A stretch of DNA of 64,000 nucleotides from Planctomycetota bacterium. Its GTDB lineage: Bacteria; Planctomycetota; Phycisphaerae; Phycisphaerales; SM1A02. A program made the position numbers and the translations under genes. The stretch spans positions 610 through 64,609 of the forward strand of contig VGXR01000009.1 in the NCBI GenBank assembly GCA_016873255.1, in the 5' to 3' direction. Of this stretch, positions 11,865-64,000 are shown piece after piece. Numbering within the stretch: the stretch's first letter is position 1; each line of letters begins with the position of its first letter. The notes under the pieces are model-generated. The model was not told the DNA's origin, did not search any database, and was given only the letters and a program-made list of their open reading frames with translations.

Positions 11865-11896
11865 GGATTCGCTCCTCGTTACTTTGGCACCAATAT
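11865..11896 (+). repeat. GGCACCAATTG-repeat family, copy 1R
   Basis: GGATTCGCTCCTCGTTACTTTGGCACCAATAT compared with the family core AAATCCGCTCCTGGTTCGTTTGGCACCAATTG. Forms an inverted pair with copy 1F, 28 bp away. Confidence 0.8.
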
Positions 11897-11924
11897 CGGC
11901 GCGGTCATGGCAGGCGGGTTCGGC

Positions 11925-11972
11925 ATTTCTCCGGAGAAGACAAGCGGTGCCAGACTAACCAGGAACGGACTT
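11925..11972 (-). repeat. GGCACCAATTG-repeat family, copy 1F (contains the stop codon of the 11955..12575 gene)
   Basis: ATTTCTCCGGAGAAGACAAGCGGTGCCAGACTAACCAGGAACGGACTT. This is the reverse complement of the family unit. Confidence 0.85.
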
Positions 11973-13862: not shown

Positions 13863-15990
<2,128 letters not shown>

Positions 15991-15998
15991 GCCCCGCC

Positions 15999-16042
15999 TC
16001 CCCGGAGAAAGGAATGGTGCCAGACGAACCAGGAGCGAACCT
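15999..16042 (-). repeat. GGCACCAATTG-repeat family, copy 2F
   Basis: TCCCCGGAGAAAGGAATGGTGCCAGACGAACCAGGAGCGAACCT. It lies 8 bp from copy 2R in inverted orientation. Its outer end is fused to the TAG (16041-16043) of the next minus-strand gene. Confidence 0.85.
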
Positions 16043-19794: not shown

Positions 19795-20528
19795 GCGGTG
19801 CGCAGGACGCGGTTGCGGCTCTCGAGGCGCTGACCGGGCACGCGTTCCGCGACCCGGGGCTGGTGCGCACCGCGCTGGTGCACTCGTCGGCGGCGGAGCG
19901 GCGCGTCGACAGCAACGAGCGGCTCGAGTTCCTCGGCGACTCCGCGCTCGGGTTCATCGTCTGCACGTACCTCTACGCGGCCCGTCCCGACCTGCTCGAA
20001 GGCGAGCTGACGAAGGTGAAGTCCAACGTGGTGAGCGGCCGCGTCCTCGCGGAACTGGCGCTCGAGTGCGGCCTTGACCGGCTGATGACCATCGACAAGG
20101 GCGTGCGCGGCCGGCAGGGCCTGCCCGAGAGCCCGCTTGCGGGCGTGTTCGAGTCCGTGGTCGGCGCGCTGTTCCTCGACGGCGGGCTGGAAGCGGCGCG
20201 GTCGTTCGTGCTGCCGCTCATGGAGCGGCGGATCGAGGCCGCGCTGCGGCTCGGGCACCAGCAGAACTTCAAGCAGGTGCTGCAGCAGTGCCTCGCCCAG
20301 CTTGACATGGGGCTGCCGCAGTACACGGTGCTCGACGAGCAGGGCCCCGACCACGCGAAGGCGTTCGAGATCTGCGTGCAGGCGGGGGCGCGGCGCTTCG
20401 GCGGCGCGTGGGGATCCAGCAAGAAGCAGGCCGAGCAGCTTGCGGCGCTGACGGCGCTGCGGGAACTTGGGCTTGCGGAGGACACCGCCGACGGCGAGGT
20501 CCGGATCGTGTGGCCGACGGCGGGGTAA
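19791..20528 (+). CDS. rnc: ribonuclease III
   Basis: In frame with ORF 19476..20528. NERLEFLGDSALG signature and a dsRBD at the C-terminus. The TAA stop is fused to repeat copy 3R. Confidence 0.9.
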   Translation: MSGAQDAVAALEALTGHAFRDPGLVRTALVHSSAAERRVDSNERLEFLGDSALGFIVCTYLYAARPDLLEGELTKVKSNVVSGRVLAELALECGLDRLMTIDKGVRGRQGLPESPLAGVFESVVGALFLDGGLEAARSFVLPLMERRIEAALRLGHQQNFKQVLQQCLAQLDMGLPQYTVLDEQGPDHAKAFEICVQAGARRFGGAWGSSKKQAEQLAALTALRELGLAEDTADGEVRIVWPTAG

Positions 20529-20587
20529 GTCCGCTCCGGCAAATCCGCTCCGGTGCATCCGCTCCTGGTCAATCTCGGCACCAATTC
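20529..20587 (+). repeat. GGCACCAATTG-repeat family, copy 3R with a triplicated 5' module
   Basis: GTCCGCTCCGGCAAATCCGCTCCGGTGCATCCGCTCCTGGTCAATCTCGGCACCAATTC. TCCGCTCC recurs at 20530, 20544 and 20558 (14-nt period). Confidence 0.8.
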
Positions 20588-20620
20588 TTGGGGGCGCGCA
20601 CCTGCCTTCCCGCGGTCGAG

Positions 20621-20650
20621 ATTGGTGCCAAACTAACCAGGAGCGAACTT
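20621..20650 (-). repeat. GGCACCAATTG-repeat family, copy 3F (contains the last 5 codons and TAG of aroK)
   Basis: ATTGGTGCCAAACTAACCAGGAGCGAACTT. Lies 33 bp from copy 3R in inverted orientation. Confidence 0.85.
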
Positions 20651-21323: not shown

Positions 21324-21436
21324 GGCTGGTTCCGGGGAGCCAAGCAGTGTAGCGGGGAGCGGGTTGCGGTGGAAGCGCCGACGAGGTGTCCTCCGCGACG
21401 GCGATTATCGGCGCACGCGGCTGCCCCGGGCGGGAG

Positions 21437-21482
21437 TTCTCCAGAGAGAGGAAATGGTGCCGAACGAACCAGGAGCGGATTT
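21437..21482 (-). repeat. GGCACCAATTG-repeat family, copy 4F (fused to the phoU TAA stop)
   Basis: TTCTCCAGAGAGAGGAAATGGTGCCGAACGAACCAGGAGCGGATTT followed by A. The reverse complement reads gagTAAATCCGCTCCTGGTTCGTTCGGCACC. Confidence 0.9.
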
Positions 21483-29567: not shown

Positions 29568-30557
29568 ATGCCTCGTTCCCTCGTCACCGGCGGCGCCGGA
29601 TTCCTGGGCTCGCACCTCTGCGACTCGCTGCTTGCCTCGGGACACTCGGTGGTCTGCCTCGACAACCTGTTCACGGGCACGAGGCAGAACATCCGGCACC
29701 TCGACGGCACGCGGGGCTTCACGTTCGTGCACCACGACGTGATCCACCCGTTCGACTTCGACGTCGACTACATCTGGAACATGGCGTGCCCCGCCGCGCC
29801 GGGGCACTACCGGTACGAGCCGGTGAAGACCACCATGACCTCGGCGCTCGGGGCGCTGCATTGCCTCGAGCTTGCCAAGCAGAGCGGTGCGCGCCTGCTG
29901 CACGCGTCCACCAGCGAGGTGTACGGCGACCCCGAGGTGCATCCGCAGCCCGAGAGCTACCGCGGAAACGTGAACCCGATCGGGCCGCGCGCCTGCTACG
30001 ACGAGGGCAAGCGGGTGGCCGAGACGCTGTGCTTCGACTTCCGGCGGCTGCATGGCACGTCGATCAAGGTGGCCAGGATCTTCAACACGTACGGTCCGCG
30101 CATGCACCCCTACGACGGGCGCGTGGTGAGCAACTTCATCCGCCAGGCGGTGACCGGCGAGGCGATGACGATCTTCGGCGACGGCACGCAGACGCGGTCG
30201 TTCTGCTACGTCGGCGACCTCATCGATGCGTTCCGCCTCCTGATGGACACGCCCGAGGGGTTCACCGGGCCGGTGAACCTGGGCAACCCGCACGAATTCA
30301 CCATGAACGAGCTGGCCGAGGTGGTGGCCCGGCACGCCGGCGTGCAGGCCACCGTGGACCGGCGCCCGCTGCCGATGGACGATCCGCTGCAGCGGCAGCC
30401 CGACATCACGCTCGCGAAGAAGGCGCTCGGCTGGGAGCCGGTCGTCGGACTCGAGGAGGGCATCCCGCGCACGATCGAGTGGTTCCGGTCGGTGCGCCTG
30501 GAGGACTACCCGCCGCCGAGCCCCAACGTCATGCAGCCCGAGGCGCAGAAGCGGTAA
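29568..30557 (+). CDS. uxs: UDP-glucuronate decarboxylase (UDP-xylose synthase)
   Basis: In frame with ORF 28998..30557, ATG at 29568. [29 protein letters not shown] and [11 protein letters not shown]. The TAA stop overlaps the first bases of repeat copy 5R. Confidence 0.9.
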
Positions 30558-30597
30558 ATCCGTTCCTGGTTGCTGAGGCACCAATGTCTCCCGGGGG
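30556..30597 (+). repeat. GGCACCAATTG-repeat family, copy 5R (solo)
   Basis: AAATCCGTTCCTGGTTGCTGAGGCACCAATGTCTCCCGGGGG directly after, and overlapping, the uxs TAA. Confidence 0.8.
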
Positions 30598-37846: not shown

Positions 37847-37919
37847 TGGCAACTCGCGGACTTGAACCGCGGACCCGCGCATTTTCAATGCGCTGCTCTA
37901 CCAACTGAGCTAAGTTGCC
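37847..37919 (-). tRNA. tRNA-Phe (GAA)
   Basis: Reverse complement: GGCAACTTAGCTCAGTTGGTAGAGCAGCGCATTGAAAATGCGCGGGTCCGCGGTTCAAGTCCGCGAGTTGCCA. Acceptor stem is 7 bp, anticodon loop TTGAAAA, T-loop GGTTCAAGTCC. CCA is not encoded. Confidence 0.95.
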
Positions 37920-39659: not shown

Positions 39660-39733
39660 GGCGACCGACGGGATTTGAACCCGCGACCCTCAGGACCACA
39701 ACCCGATGCTCTGCCAACTGAGCTACGGTCGCC
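39660..39733 (-). tRNA. tRNA-His (GTG) with genome-encoded G-1
   Basis: Reverse complement: G-GCGACCGTAGCTCAGTTGGCAGAGCATCGGGTTGTGGTCCTGAGGGTCGCGGGTTCAAATCCCGTCGGTCGCC-C. G-1 pairs with C73. Anticodon loop TTGTGGT. Confidence 0.95.
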
Positions 39734-50585: not shown

Positions 50586-50958
50586 GTCGTGCCTCTCGGG
50601 GCCGTGCGGCCGCCGTGCGTTCGGTCCGATGGCGGTCGTGGGCCCAAGTCGCGTGGGCAGGACCGTTGCGCAGGCCGGTCTTCCGGCTTGGGGGCTCCGG
50701 ACCCGCCTTCCCGGCCTGCCGCATTGCACGGCGTGCCAGTGGCTTCAAGGGTCGCGGCGGCGGGCATGGTGCCCGCGGCCCCACTCACGGCGGCGCGTCC
50801 GCGGCGGTATTGCACCGCCTTCCCGAGCCGAGCCCCACGACGCCGAACGGACCGGTCCGGCGGGCGTGGCGACCCGGCCTTCCGCAGCCACGGGGCTGCG
50901 GACGCCTGCGCGGCGGAGAGTGTAGCGAGCGCCGGGGAACAGCGTCCCGGAACTTTCG

Positions 50959-53519: not shown

Positions 53520-53591
53520 GCCACCCTAGCTCAGCGGTAGAGCAGTGCTTTCGTAAAGCACAGGTCGTGGGTTCGAATCCCATGGGTGGCT
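53520..53591 (+). tRNA. tRNA-Thr (CGT)
   Basis: GCCACCCTAGCTCAGCGGTAGAGCAGTGCTTTCGTAAAGCACAGGTCGTGGGTTCGAATCCCATGGGTGGCT. Anticodon loop TTCGTAA. A TATGAT -10-like box lies 12 nt upstream. Confidence 0.95.
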
Positions 53592-53598
53592 TCGCTGC

Positions 53599-53634
53599 AT
53601 GGCGGGCGGTGCCCTGACGGGCAGCGCCCGCCAT
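53599..53634 (+). terminator. GC-rich hairpin 3' of tRNA-Thr
   Basis: ATGGCGGGCG...CGCCCGCCAT (10 bp) extended by 5 inner pairs, followed by TTCGCTTCG. Confidence 0.65.
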
Positions 53635-53742
53635 TTCGCTTCGCCCCCCGCTGTCCGGCGGGGCCGGCCAGCCCCTCCCGGCGGAGCCGGTCGGGTGGTC
53701 TTCGCGCTCGCGGCTCGCGTCGAATCCCTTTGATTCCTCCGG

Positions 53743-53781
53743 AGAATTCAATTGGTGCCAAACGAACCAGGAACGGATTTA
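53743..53781 (-). repeat. GGCACCAATTG-repeat family, copy 6F (solo)
   Basis: ATTCCTCCGGAGAATTCAATTGGTGCCAAACGAACCAGGAACGGATTT followed by A. It lies 7 nt from the TAA of the minus-strand ORF ending at 53788. Confidence 0.9.
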
Positions 53782-60740: not shown

Positions 60741-61964
60741 ATGACAACCGCCGTCGCCAGCCCGTTCGAGCGCCGCACGCAGCAGATCCTGGAGTCGCTG
60801 AGGCAGTCCGGCCAGCTGAAGCACCTGCAGACCATCGAGGGCACCATGGGCGCCACGGTGACGCTCCGCGGCTACGGCACCGTGGCCTGCTTCTGCTCGA
60901 ACAACTACCTCGGGCTTGCCGACCATCCCGAGGTGGTTGAGGCCGGCATCGAGGGCCTGCGGCGCTACGGCGCGGGCACCGCGAGCGTGCGGTTCATCTG
61001 CGGGACGTTCGAGTGCCACGAGCGCCTCGAGGAGACCATCGCGCGCTTCTACGGATGCGAGGCGGCGTACACGTTCACGAGCTGCTGGAACGCGAACGAG
61101 GCCATCTTCCCGACGCTCTGCGAGCCGGGCGACCTCGTGATCAGCGACGAGCTGAACCATGCCTCCATCATCGACGGCATCCGCCTGGCGGCCGTGATCA
61201 AGAAGGGCCTCCACAAGGGCGTGTTCCGGCACTCGGACCTCGCGGACCTCAGGCGCAAGCTGGAGGCGGCGCGCGCCAACCCCGAGGTGACCGGCGCGAT
61301 CTGGGTGGTGACCGACGGCGTCTTCAGCATGGAGGGCGACATCGGCGACCTGCCGGGGCTGCGCGCGGTGTGCGACGAGTTCGGCGCGCTGCTCGTGGTG
61401 GATGACAGCCACGGCACGGGCGTGATGGGCCGCACGGGCCGCGGCACGCACGAGCACTGGGGCATGGACCCGGCCAGGGTCGATTACTTCACCGGGACCC
61501 TCGGCAAGTCGCTCGGCGGCGCCGCGGGCGGGTACGTGGTCGGGTCGCGGCGCGCGATCGACCTCCTCGTGCAGCGCGGCCGGCCGACCCTCTTCTCGAA
61601 CGCGCTGCCGGCGACCGTCGCGTGCAGCGCGCAGAGGGCGATCGAGGTGCTGATGCGCGAGCCCGAGCGCGTGCAGCGCCTGCGCGACAACGTTGCCTAC
61701 GCGCGGCGCACCATCCGCGAGGCCGGGTTCGAGGTGCTCGAGAGCCCCACGGCGATCTGCCCGATCATCGTGCACGACACGGCGAAGGCCATCGCGATGA
61801 GCAGGCGGCTCCTCGAGCTCGGCGTGTTCGTGATCGGCTTCGGCTATCCGGTGGTGCCCGAGGGCCACGCGCGCCTGCGCTGCCAGGTGAGCGCGGCGCA
61901 CGGCAAGGAGCACCTCGACGCCTTCGGGACGGCGCTCCGCCAGCTGCGCCGCGAATTCGCGTGA
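60741..61964 (+). CDS. kbl: glycine C-acetyltransferase (2-amino-3-ketobutyrate CoA ligase)
   Basis: 407-aa ORF. CSNNYLGLADHP, SVRFICGT, DDSHGTG and TGTLGKSLGG (PLP lysine). Confidence 0.85.
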   Translation: MTTAVASPFERRTQQILESLRQSGQLKHLQTIEGTMGATVTLRGYGTVACFCSNNYLGLADHPEVVEAGIEGLRRYGAGTASVRFICGTFECHERLEETIARFYGCEAAYTFTSCWNANEAIFPTLCEPGDLVISDELNHASIIDGIRLAAVIKKGLHKGVFRHSDLADLRRKLEAARANPEVTGAIWVVTDGVFSMEGDIGDLPGLRAVCDEFGALLVVDDSHGTGVMGRTGRGTHEHWGMDPARVDYFTGTLGKSLGGAAGGYVVGSRRAIDLLVQRGRPTLFSNALPATVACSAQRAIEVLMREPERVQRLRDNVAYARRTIREAGFEVLESPTAICPIIVHDTAKAIAMSRRLLELGVFVIGFGYPVVPEGHARLRCQVSAAHGKEHLDAFGTALRQLRREFA

Positions 61965-63364
61965 TCTACCGGCGGATCTACGACCACGCGCTCGCGCAGG
62001 CGAGCTACCTCGTCGGCTGCGACGAGACGCGCGAGGCGGTGCTCGTCGATCCCGAGCGCGACATCGACCGCTACGAGCGCGAGGCCGAGGATGCGGGCGT
62101 GCGGATCGTGGCCGTGGCCGAGACGCACCTGCACGCGGACTTCGTGAGCGGGGTGCGGGCGTTCGTGGCATCGCGTCCGGTGACGGCGTACATGAGCGGA
62201 GTCGGCACCCGTGCGCCGTGGACCGCGGAGGGGCCGTTCCACGCAGGTGCTTCGCTGCGGTTCCTCGGCGACGGCGAAGAGTTCCGCGTGGGATCGCTGC
62301 TGTTCCGCGCGCGGCACACGCCCGGGCACACGCGCGAGGCGCTGAGCTTCGAGTTCGTGGGCGAGCAGGGCTTCCCGATCGCGCTGTTCTCGGGGGACTT
62401 CCTCTTCGCGGGCGATGTCGGGAGGCCGGACCTCGGGTTCCTCGCAAGCGGCGGCATGACCGTGGAGGAGAGCGCCGACGCGCTGCGGCGCAGCCTGGCG
62501 CTGCTCGACGACATGCCGGACGCGACGGTCGTCCTGCCGGGGCACGGCGCGGGCAGCGCGTGCGGCAAGATGATCTGCCGGCTCCCGGAGACGACGGTCG
62601 GCATCGAGCGCGTGATCAACCGGCCGCTTCGATCCAAGGACGACGGCGCGCGCTTCGTGGAGGGGCTCCTCCGAGACCAGCCCGACCCGCCGCCGTACTT
62701 CGGGCGCGTGAAGAAGGCGAACGAGGCGGGACCGGCGGTGCACGGCTGCGTGCCGTCGCCGCCGAGGCTCGGGCCCGAGGCCTTCGTGGCCGCGTCCCGC
62801 GAGCTGGCGCGCGTGGTGGTCGACACGCGCGAGTGGGGTGCCTGGGTGGACGGGCACCTGCCGGGGTCGATCTTCGCCATGCTCGACCCGTACTTCGGCC
62901 CGACCACCGCCAACTACCTCGAGCCCGGCGACGAGGTGCTGCTGGTGGTGGACGAGGACCGCGTCGAGGAGGCGGTGCGCGTGCTGTACCGCGTCGGGAT
63001 CGACGGCTTCGCCGGCTGGATCGCGCCGCGCGACTTCGTCCGCATCGACGAGGACGCGTTCGAGGCATCCGGGTGCGAGGAGATCTCGCCGCGCGAGGCC
63101 AACCGGCGCATCCTCTCCGGTGCGCTGGCGCTCGACGTGCGCAGCAGGCAGGAGTTCGCCAAGGGCCACATCGCGGGTGCGTTGCAGGTGCCGTTCATCC
63201 AGCTCTCGGCGCGCATCGGCGAGCTCGACCGCGCGCGGCCCGTGGTTGCCTACTGCCGAAGCGGCAACCGCAGCGCGCGCGCGTGCGCGTTCCTGCGGCG
63301 CCATGGCTTCGAGGTCGCCAACCTGCGCGGCGGCTACTGGCCCTACGCGGGCCGCGGATTCTGA
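61961..63364 (+). CDS. MBL-fold metallo-hydrolase fused to rhodanese-like domains (persulfide dioxygenase-like)
   Basis: In frame with ORF 61622..63364. GTG 61961 overlaps the kbl TGA (GTGA). ETHLHADFVSG, HTPGHT and LPGHGAGS. C-terminal rhodanese with YCRSGNRS. Confidence 0.8.
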   Translation: MIYRRIYDHALAQASYLVGCDETREAVLVDPERDIDRYEREAEDAGVRIVAVAETHLHADFVSGVRAFVASRPVTAYMSGVGTRAPWTAEGPFHAGASLRFLGDGEEFRVGSLLFRARHTPGHTREALSFEFVGEQGFPIALFSGDFLFAGDVGRPDLGFLASGGMTVEESADALRRSLALLDDMPDATVVLPGHGAGSACGKMICRLPETTVGIERVINRPLRSKDDGARFVEGLLRDQPDPPPYFGRVKKANEAGPAVHGCVPSPPRLGPEAFVAASRELARVVVDTREWGAWVDGHLPGSIFAMLDPYFGPTTANYLEPGDEVLLVVDEDRVEEAVRVLYRVGIDGFAGWIAPRDFVRIDEDAFEASGCEEISPREANRRILSGALALDVRSRQEFAKGHIAGALQVPFIQLSARIGELDRARPVVAYCRSGNRSARACAFLRRHGFEVANLRGGYWPYAGRGF

Positions 63365-63367
63365 CCG

Positions 63368-63416
63368 AAATCCGCTCCTGGTTCGTTTGGCACCAATTGA
63401 TTTCTCCAGAGAAATC
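63368..63416 (+). repeat. GGCACCAATTG-repeat family, copy 7R (left arm of a 465-bp composite element)
   Basis: AAATCCGCTCCTGGTTCGTTTGGCACCAATTGATTTCTCCAGAGAAATC, starting 4 nt after the TGA at 63364. The inner end forms a GATTTCTC/GAGAAATC-type hairpin. Confidence 0.9.
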
Positions 63417-63783
63417 AGGTTGTCGCTTCGGTCGCGCGGGTGGACGGGCGTGGACGCCTCGGCGACCGGTGGTGGGGACGGTTGCGCTCGCGGTGCGCGG
63501 TGCGCCTGGACGCCTCGGCGACCGGCGGTGGCCTCAGTCGCTCGGACAAGTTGCACGCGGCGGGTGCATCTGCGGCGGGGCGCGCGCGGCCGGGGCGTGC
63601 AACAACTCGCTTGATGAGGCCACCACCGTTCGCTGTCGGCTCGGGGCGACGAACGTCGGGAGGGGGTCGGGCGCTGGCTGTCGTTCATTTGCGTGCGACC
63701 GAATCCGGGGAACGCAACCCGTCATTCGGCGCGGCCGCCGCCGGAACCACCGCAACCCGTCAACCAACCACCACCCGCTCCCA

Positions 63784-63832
63784 GATTTCTATTGAGAAAT
63801 CAATTGGTGCCAAACGAACCGGGAGCGGATCT
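63784..63832 (-). repeat. GGCACCAATTG-repeat family, copy 7F (right arm)
   Basis: Reverse complement: AGATCCGCTCCCGGTTCGTTTGGCACCAATTGATTTCTCAATAGAAATC. Its outer end is fused to the TAG (63831-63833) of the last gene. Confidence 0.9.
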
Positions 63833-64000
63833 AGCGCACGCTGAGGGTCGGTTGCACGAAGCCGCCGAGCGACTGGATGCTGACCTGCGATGCAAGCCGC
63901 TGGCAGAGCCCGTCGATGTCGCGGCCGAGGGCCGGGGTGTCCCAGTTGCGAAGCGGGGTTCCCGCGTCGCAGTTGGCGCGCAGCTGCATGTGGATGGGCA
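63831..64000 (-). CDS. C-terminal end of an unidentified gene running off the window end
   Basis: Open frame on the minus strand ending ...LGGFVQPTLSVR* at TAG 63831-63833. Coding is inferred from the open frame and from the repeat position. No function assigned. Confidence 0.4.
   Translation of the reverse strand, partial: PIHMQLRANCDAGTPLRNWDTPALGRDIDGLCQRLASQVSIQSLGGFVQPTLSVR

Follow-up and report, generated by a model that had tools for sequence, protein, structure and literature searches.

A 465-bp inverted-repeat block in an uncultured Phycisphaerales bacterium, very probably a transposase-less member of a REPIN/RAYT-type repeat system

A 465-bp non-coding block at positions 63368-63832 of a 64,000-nt stretch of planctomycete DNA (contig VGXR01000009.1 of assembly GCA_016873255.1, Phycisphaerales; hereafter the window) consists of a core enclosed by two inverted arms and is, with high probability, a non-autonomous member of a repeat system of the REPIN/RAYT type, in which sequences of the repetitive extragenic palindromic (REP) kind are paired with a REP-associated tyrosine transposase (RAYT), as in the arrangements called REPtron or TIRtron. 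The element is of a known kind, closest to the TIRtron variant, and is neither a new class nor a miniature inverted-repeat transposable element (MITE) of the DDE type. What is new is the host, an uncultured Phycisphaerales lineage, together with a 48-nt unit that carries no tag and is joined to stop codons in every frame, the multiplied cargo-bearing form that lacks the transposase, and a near-invariant hairpin inside it.

The core of the block proved to be a dispersed repeat. Using blastn, we found at least 15 loci in which the same arms enclose it (86-92% identity) while the genes on either side are unrelated; two of them lie on a single 18.5-kb contig (L016 and L052; labels of this form denote contigs or family loci retrieved for comparison). 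The core is also where many contigs stop, as is typical of repeats that interrupt assembly. The original prediction, made from the letters of the window, had named such copies between the same arms as the sign of a mobile element and an empty site in related strains as a further one, and both were found. The convergent gene pair enclosing the block, which encodes a metallo-beta-lactamase (MBL)-fold hydrolase with a rhodanese domain and an Mrp/ApbC-type ATPase, was kept in four relatives whose MBL-rhodanese proteins are 83-64% identical; there the two genes are separated by spacers of 6, 50, 33 and 91 nt, and the ~21-kb loci of these four syntenic relatives contained no arms. The Mrp stop codon is TGA in the empty-site relatives, and TAG or TAA, continuous with the arm, after the same last sense codon where the site is occupied. 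The alternative offered beforehand, an ordinary intergenic region with a unique core in a synteny kept without arms, is contradicted by the multi-copy core. The window matched freshwater metagenome contigs of the JGI exactly (Ga01941xx), and the 465-bp locus was near-identical in six samples; for window loci, orthologous flanks in contigs of the same sample series are 97-98% identical to the window.

The family is linked to a RAYT-like Y1/HUH transposase. In a close relative (L049), a 293-aa open reading frame (ORF) lies between an intact arm and the core. This ORF matched Pfam Y1_Tnp (E = 2e-13, 51 bits, cut-off 23), and its best NCBIfam model was REP_Tyr_transpos (NF047646; E = 1e-19, 70.7 bits), with transpos_IS200 reaching 25 bits. 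The HUH motif (MPNHVHF), the catalytic tyrosine (LRYVEQNP) and a WSS motif are conserved in 21 homologues, and a profile of these found E. coli TnpA-REP (4ER8) as its best PDB match (E = 5.6e-10), ahead of any IS200/IS605 transposase. The identical gene was present on five contigs (L049, L081-L084), always convergent with the same S-adenosylmethionine (SAM)-methyltransferase gene; core sequence was found upstream of it in L049 and L081, and L081-L084 all break ~350 nt upstream of the gene, inside the core. The SAM-methyltransferase neighbour is kept by the homologues of 73% and 71% identity; rhaM accompanies it where the contig reaches that far (L081, with the identical gene, and L085). Arms and enzyme diverge together. 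In L085, a perfect 72-nt doublet lies 58 nt upstream of the RAYT homologue and an inverted arm overlaps the 3' end of the gene, and L094/L095 show the order arm, 70 nt, RAYT homologue, arm; in both cases the arms are the lineage's own diverged versions, and their outer ends meet the stop codons of the neighbouring genes. A homologue of 60% identity occupies another locus; the 32-nt inverted repeat on its two sides (97% complementary) is unrelated and again flush with TAA stops. The suggestion that the block is the full-length member of its family was not borne out, given that ~713-bp versions exist (L052, L064, L069) and that arm and core flank the transposase gene in L049.

At the transposase loci, the RAYT-like ORF of L049 (395-1276) reads through the antisense strand of the downstream arm (tail ...ENNWCQTNQERIS), and in relatives (e.g. 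L085, 6001-6780) the arm supplies the TAA stop of the RAYT ORF (tail ...MVQT); one arm therefore terminates two convergent genes. A candidate degenerate arm between core and gene in L049 was not supported (alignment score 14 against a shuffle mean of 15.5). Downstream of a 74%-identity RAYT homologue, L093 carries at 893-974 a tandem array of a ~14-nt unit, CGCGACCGTGCGCT, which runs to the contig end; a relation of this array to the core was rejected for lack of significant similarity.

The block and its neighbours in the window, whose GC content is ~72%, are arranged as follows.

61961-63364, plus strand: upstream gene, MBL-fold hydrolase with rhodanese domain, 467 aa, TGA stop at 63362-63364; Pfam PF00753 and PF00581 on the identical contig L001.
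63368-63416, plus strand: left arm (REP-like unit), AAATCCGCTCCTGGTTCGTTTGGCACCAATT followed by the 18-nt palindrome GATTTCTCCAGAGAAATC; nhmmer 68 bits.
63420-63780, plus strand: non-coding core, multi-copy and homologous to sequence upstream of the lineage's RAYT-like gene.
63784-63832, minus strand: right arm, an inverted REP-like unit; AGATCC, at its outer end, is fused with the Mrp-type gene's TAG stop.
63831-64000, minus strand: 3' end of the downstream gene, Mrp/ApbC-type ATPase, 364 aa, which runs off the window; PF01883 and PF10609 on L001.

An inverted-repeat search of the window placed the arms at 63370-63419 and 63781-63830, 50 nt each, 92% complementary and 361 nt apart; the near-identical arms, their quoted sequences and their inner hairpins had been described correctly. 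The 18-nt palindromes on the inner sides of the arms, GATTTCTCCAGAGAAATC at 63399-63416 and GATTTCTATTGAGAAATC at 63784-63801, follow the pattern GATTTCT-N4-AGAAATC, for which 0.03 occurrences are expected by chance; an arm 26-mer occurs three times in the window and not once in 100 shuffles. The block fills the gap between the convergent genes, as had been noticed: the first base of the left arm lies 3 nt past the TGA stop of the MBL-rhodanese gene, and the right arm, at its outer end, shares bases with the TAG stop of the Mrp/ApbC-type gene (CTA, 63831-63833). The core holds no credible ORF, in agreement with the first reading, because 1-nt indels among its copies and, in one population, a 7-nt indel (CGCGGTG copy number) break the long ORFs. 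No Rfam 15 family reached its gathering score for the arms, the window element or the longer copies; nor did a permissive threshold (E<=10) give anything beyond chance-level matches (E = 4.7 and 6.5).

A profile built from five arms detected seven arm-family loci in the window, where none was expected, or about one locus per 9 kb. Those other than the 465-bp block are listed here.

11865-11972, no strand assigned: degenerate 108-nt doublet between tandem minus-strand genes, with the TAG stop of the upstream gene inside the right arm; orthologous copies in L030, L056 and L058.
15945-16042, no strand assigned: 98-nt doublet between a 701-aa plus-strand ORF (13872-15977, ligA candidate) and a convergent gene; the last 10 codons and TGA stop of the ORF are arm sequence.
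20527-20650, no strand assigned: doublet with its outer left end present three times (AAGTCCGCTCCGG / AAATCCGCTCCGG / ATCCGCTCCTGG); TAA and TAG stops are fused to the doublet or lie inside it.
21435-21482, minus strand: solo arm; the minus-strand gene upstream of it has its TAA stop fused to the arm.
30556-30595, plus strand: solo arm, degenerate and joined to the TAA with which the upstream plus-strand gene ends.
53732-53780, minus strand: solo arm downstream of tRNA-Thr(CGT), in a spacer where no called gene ends.

A degenerate pattern of the arm, used in one scan of metagenomes, added 65 further loci from several lakes. Across loci there were ~130 arm matches, comprising 105 distinct sequences in 75 distinct flank groups, and all arms are intergenic or overlap only the last codons of genes. 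When arm-selected loci were searched by their flanks for empty sites, only occupied orthologues were returned, as is expected from the way the loci were selected. An exact arm 21-mer had no match in the GTDB genome collection, where the lineage is barely represented; a core 20-mer found there one contig end of a Phycisphaerales metagenome-assembled genome (MAG) and one chance match, and the core pattern had no match in viral contigs.

The 105 distinct arms gave the consensus AAATCCG(C/T)TCCTGGTT(A/C)GTTTGGCACCAATTGTTTTCTCCAGAGAAATC, in which conservation sets in sharply at the first A of AAATCC, positions -2 to -12 resembling background. The base at -1 is T in 0.50, G in 0.45, C in 0.06 and A in none, on both arms. 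These counts are incompatible with a direct repeat of 1-3 nt, and we accordingly detected no target-site duplication flanking the arms; a TA duplication (IS630/mariner-like) or a TNA duplication (IS5/IS1031-like) was likewise rejected from the position-specific counts. This bears on the description of the block as MITE-like, which holds insofar as the element is multi-copy, non-coding and bounded by inverted repeats, and fails in the strict DDE sense, as there is no target-site duplication and the associated enzyme is of the Y1/HUH REP type. A classical MITE, that is, an internally deleted derivative of a DDE-transposase insertion sequence (IS) mobilised through its 48-nt terminal inverted repeats, would account for the long near-identical repeats, small size, lack of an ORF, many copies and internally deleted derivatives, and would be expected to leave the duplication that was not found. 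No DDE gene was seen between arms in ~0.75 Mb of family loci, which were not fully annotated, and the only genes bracketed by inverted arms were the Y1/HUH transposase and a small RidA-family gene (L015/L050). We therefore consider a classical MITE very improbable. Palindrome-associated transposable elements (PATEs) derived from IS200/IS605 carry same-strand subterminal hairpins at both ends, have no long terminal inverted repeat and insert 3' of a fixed 4-5-nt motif; the present element does not fit this description, its ends being 48-nt inverted repeats with no fixed upstream motif beyond K at -1.

The family occurs in distinct size classes. Among the compact doublets measured, 13 of 16 are 98-100 nt long, and the other three, degenerate or rearranged, are 108-110 nt; their central spacers of 7-9 nt are not conserved. 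A compact doublet folds into a near-perfect hairpin, as single-stranded DNA (ssDNA; z = -11.6) and as RNA (z = -4.5). Long forms measure 478-713 nt, with L052, L064 and L069 representing the ~713-nt type. Intermediates of 186-314 nt are internal-deletion products, because the same chromosomal sites hold the full long form in another population (L044 against L025/L073, L020 against L071, L055 against L065). The window copy is itself shortened relative to the L052/L064/L069 type, with deletions that fall between short direct repeats. The proposal that the other loci are internally deleted was thus right for these shorter derivatives, which occupy the sites of long forms, and wrong for the short members as a whole, which form a discrete class of 98-100-nt doublets rather than a series of independent deletions. 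A 500-nt 'core' in L015/L050 was discarded as a long form: it is a RidA-family gene between two gene-end arms, one at its own end and one at the end of its upstream neighbour.

The outermost 13-17 nt of the arm, (T)GAAATCCGCTCCTG, are tandemly doubled or tripled at 20527-20570 of the window and in L011/L037 and L021. Such copies may have been left by slippage at the end of the element, or by cleavage and rejoining that took place there more than once.

Arms are strongly associated with the 3' ends of genes. Of the 103 distinct arms with enough flanking sequence, 86 adjoin a same-strand gene at its 3' end and nine adjoin the start of a gene, with eight that could not be assigned; the nine are partner arms of doublets between tandem genes. 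The position of the stop codon relative to AAATCC in the gene-end arms was distributed as follows.

Stop at -1: 44 arms, T+AA or TAG/TGA variants.
Stop at -2: 8 arms, TG+A.
Stop at +15: 17 arms, TAG of the GGTTAG variant, which adds a K-S-A-P-G tail.
Stop at +30: 1 arm, TGA.
Stop at -4 to -6: 12 arms, native stop kept upstream of the arm.
Stop at -17 to -23: 4 arms, with partial arm-end duplications between stop and arm.

Altogether, 70 of the 86 gene-end arms contribute to the stop codon or provide it whole, and they do so in each of the three reading frames; 17 genes end in K-S/F-A/V-P-G. The +30 case is the 701-aa ORF of the window, the last ten residues of which are arm-encoded; an ORF of L052 (828-1466) also ends at a +30 TGA, with the tail KSAPGSFGTN, its arm being among the eight unassignable ones in the count. 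The former ORF is probably LigA and the latter probably TrpF. Part of the gene-end bias is due to very short native spacers, and the remainder would be explained by survival only where a stop is recreated or by some preference for a T/G context. It has been described that GTAG REPs can supply TAG stops with their termini (PMC3733652), and that REPs within 15 nt of stop codons affect translation (a study cited in PMC12306157).

The possibility that the block is simply two independent gene-end units, that is, 3' untranslated region or terminator modules, one per convergent gene, with ordinary lineage-specific intergenic sequence between them, had also been raised at the outset. Solo arms do sit at gene ends in sense orientation, which is the part of this proposal that stands, and the arms of L015 bracket the RidA-family gene since each gene end carries one. 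At the 465-bp locus it is refuted by the core, since what lies between the arms recurs, again with these arms, at 15 or more further sites. Doublets, moreover, do not vary freely in length but keep to 98-100 nt, some of them are found between tandem genes with one arm abutting a start codon, and no intrinsic-terminator pattern is present. As an account of the block, two unrelated gene-end units are thus hardly credible.

The core carries its own internal organisation.

63429-63531, plus strand: two copies of a ~56-nt repeat unit (with TGGACGCCTCGGCGACCGGYGGTGG); copy number varies from 1 to 5 across elements.
63503-63650, no strand assigned: near-invariant imperfect hairpin domain of 148 nt, with block A at 63507-63558, a variable apical part at 63559-63594 and block B at 63595-63649.
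63650-63780, plus strand: variable 3' part of the core, internally deleted relative to longer copies.

The 25-nt direct repeat recognised at the outset, TGGACGCCTCGGCGACCGG(T/C)GGTGG, is real and sits within a larger 47-nt repeat (63429-63475 and 63485-63531; 77% identical, spaced 56 nt). A CGCGGTG microrepeat at 63489-63505 is present 2.4 times in the window and with one copy more in the L005 population, which is the sole length difference among samples at the 465-bp locus. In the 3' part, alignment showed ~45 nt of extra length relative to the window in L016, L048 and L031 and ~235 nt in L052, L064 and L069.

The hairpin, detected as inverted repeats I2 and I5, has GGTGGCCTCA/TGAGGCCACC as its stem, GTCGCTCGGACAA / AACTCGCTTGA as an internal loop and GTTGCACGC/GCGTGCAAC as its inner stem. 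Across 16 core copies, the mean pairwise identity was 0.998 in block A and 0.989 in block B, with 0.89 in the apical region and 0.74 in the 3' flank; the arms vary by several percent among copies, for example at 4 of 48 nt between the left arms of the window and L016. Folded as ssDNA, the 148-nt hairpin had z = -3.1 on both strands against shuffled sequence. The minimum free energy of the whole core was unexceptional (z = -0.5 and -0.3), and only the central hairpin stood out. No sigma-70 promoter or intrinsic-terminator pattern was found in the hairpin region, and the hairpin was absent from the lineages whose RAYT homologues are 71-73% identical. Because the stems never vary, there is no covariation that could separate RNA, ssDNA and protein-site readings of the structure. 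Near-invariance of this degree needs either purifying selection or frequent gene conversion. We tentatively suggest, as a possibility well short of an even chance, that the ~99%-invariant hairpin is a selected module acting in cis or in trans, such as a structured RNA or ssDNA element through which the RAYT-like transposase would be controlled or directed, or one co-opted by the host, with the dispersed transposase-less copies serving as functional decoys or regulators. If so, this would be a REPIN-type system with a conserved non-coding component, of which, to our knowledge, none has been described so far. An internal hairpin more strongly constrained than the element's own ends is in any case an uncommon feature.

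In a rival reading, the core would be a module of its own, mobile or functional (a small-RNA gene or a recombination site, for instance), which inserted into the spacers of pre-existing doublets, so that the arms would be its target rather than the ends of the element. There is a precedent in ssr9 of ISPpu9, a non-coding module that spreads into REPs (PMC12288879); compact doublets and long forms have complete, identical arms and differ only in the spacer, and the contrast between hairpin blocks at ~99% identity and the 10-25% divergence of the arms and the remaining core argues for selection on the core. The core was, however, never seen without an arm wherever the sequence extends far enough, it adjoins the RAYT-like gene at that gene's home locus, and the spacers of compact doublets are unconserved and hence offer no defined target. 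No second recombinase or IS110-family recombinase was noticed beside core copies, at loci that were not systematically annotated, and the loops do not co-vary with the arm sequence, since they are invariant. We regard an independent core module as unlikely, although less so than a classical MITE.

Several other candidates in the sequence were considered and rejected: a sigma-54 promoter, TTGGCACC-N-TTG, by eye for its wrong spacing; a tRNA-like 3' end, GGTTCG...CACCA, in which T-arm pairing is impossible; and a hammerhead-like CUUGAUGAG, which has an extra U, no GAAA and no Rfam match. A bridge-RNA-like internal loop, with TCGCT in both loop strands matching the arm variant TTCGCTCC, was unsupported, as chance alone should produce a 6-mer match and the loops, unlike the arms, do not vary. 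At 300-420 of L075, the Phycisphaerales MAG contig end, hairpin block A is followed by its own perfect reverse complement and block B is missing, which is probably a fold-back assembly artefact at the repeat.

Elsewhere in the window, a 147-nt stretch begins in the T-arm of tRNA-Thr(CGT) (TCGAATCCC), reaches a further TCGAATCCC immediately ahead of the solo arm and occurs in a single copy (53539-53722); on the otherwise identical contig L001 (2539-2988), the same 147-nt unit forms a perfect 3.1-copy tandem array. The difference is either a copy-number polymorphism through the 9-nt repeat or an assembly artefact. A cobalamin riboswitch at 50656-50851 on the minus strand (42.8 bits, above the gathering score) and further tRNA genes at 37847-37919 and 39660-39732, both on the minus strand, are unrelated to the 465-bp block.

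Returning to the block as a non-autonomous member of a REPIN/RAYT-type system, our analysis leads to the following model. The basic unit would be the ~48-nt arm, made up of a conserved 30-nt 5' part and an 18-nt hairpin, and two inverted arms would constitute a hairpin-forming doublet, with 98-100 nt as its common form. The spacer of the window element appears to be a 361-nt piece of the sequence that lies between the arm and the single-locus Y1/HUH gene in the close relative, omitting the transposase gene and ~170 nt of the gene's proximal upstream region. In the simplest history, an arm-gene-core-arm unit would have been internally deleted and the transposase-less product then copied to at least 15 sites. 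IS200/IS605 and TnpA-REP enzymes act on hairpins and leave no target duplication. By analogy with these enzymes, the RAYT-like protein may recognise the arm hairpin on single-stranded DNA and cleave at the sharp outer boundary K|AAATCC, and the doublet would be the mobile unit, moving with anything between its arms and without target duplication. Insertions would survive almost only at extreme gene 3' ends, where the arm end (T+AA, TG+A, the internal TAG at +15 or the TGA at +30) recreates a stop, and copies would thereby join mRNA 3' ends. As with REPs, the arms may then act as 3' hairpins that stabilise or terminate transcripts, or dampen translation termination.

Several observations weigh against this interpretation. 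There is no Y1 transposase gene inside the 64-kb window itself, neither a GTAG nor a CGTC tag occurs on either strand of the arm consensus AAATCCGYTCCTGGTTMGTTTGGCACCAATTGTTTTCTCCAGAGAAATC, and the 70.7 bits of the transposase fall short of the curated REP_Tyr_transpos cut-off of 80. No contig spans the core-side end of the transposase locus, where assemblies break in the core; with that side unassembled, the position of the RAYT-like gene inside an arm-core-arm unit is something we infer rather than see. No recent pair of insertion and empty site at near-identical sequence was found, and the exact joint and mobility were thus not observed. The copy number per genome is an extrapolation from contigs, and the near-invariance of the hairpin fits poorly with a simple 'junk cargo' model.

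Collectively, these findings suggest that REPIN/RAYT-type systems, which have been studied nearly only in Proteobacteria, are also dense in uncultured freshwater Phycisphaerales. The multiplied transposase-less form of 0.5-0.7 kb suggests that the enzyme can move sizeable cargo between two arms. The short arm-encoded tails on host proteins matter for gene callers and annotators, and the family breaks metagenome assemblies of this lineage.

Among known elements, Correia/ERIC-type MITEs resemble the present family in being small, non-coding, bounded by inverted repeats, co-transcribed with neighbouring genes and able to form long hairpins; they differ in their TA or other target duplications and DDE-type partners, neither of which was found here. 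ssr9 of ISPpu9 from Pseudomonas putida (PMC12288879) is likewise a non-coding module found beside a transposase gene and alone at other repeat-associated sites, whereas its partner is an IS110-family recombinase and it inserts into REPs; here, the only linked enzyme is of the Y1 type and the module is always bounded by full arms. E. coli REPs also lie a few nucleotides from, or overlap, the upstream stop codon, can supply the stop and are found in mRNA 3' ends (PMC3733652 and the study cited in PMC12306157). Fusion to the stop is, by contrast, the rule in our family, with ~80% of arms at gene ends and 70 of 86 supplying the stop, in all three frames.

In the REPIN-RAYT or REPtron architecture, the locus of the tyrosine transposase is fixed, the repeats that flank it diverge together with it, and single repeats and inverted doublets are present throughout the genome (PMC3116915, PMC5581495, PMC3733652). 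The family described here shares with these systems (Bertels & Rainey 2011, PMC3116915; Bertels et al. 2017, PMC5581495; TnpA-REP 4ER8) inverted hairpin doublets of ~100 nt, a large number of extragenic copies, one conserved chromosomal locus at which the Y1/HUH gene lies between these repeats, divergence of repeat and transposase together by lineage, and the lack of target duplication. It departs from them in its 48-nt unit, of which only the inner 18 nt are palindromic and which has no GTAG tag, in its planctomycete rather than proteobacterial host, in a transposase that scores below the NCBIfam equivalog cut-off, and in a long form whose 360-620 nt of cargo, derived from transposase-flanking sequence, has itself been multiplied.

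The closest relatives are the TIRtrons or TIRYTs (Di Nocera et al. 2013, PMC3733652), in which a RAYT-like tyrosine transposase lies between long terminal inverted repeats that have no relation to GTAG REPs. Partial self-complementarity occurs in some of these repeats; elsewhere in the genome the repeats are single, dimeric or grouped, and they can overlap the 3' end of the transposase gene (PMC3733652). Many tyrosine transposase genes with corresponding flanking repeats have been described in a planctomycete, R. baltica (PMC3733652). In contrast to the 'moderately abundant' families of PMC3733652, ours is densely spread, the window holding about one locus per 9 kb; it lacks their common GGGGWSAS motif, and a cargo-bearing derivative without transposase is not described in PMC3733652. 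With a RAYT-like gene flanked by repeats, and single and dimeric repeats dispersed elsewhere, the system nevertheless corresponds to the definition of a TIRtron/TIRYT given in PMC3733652.

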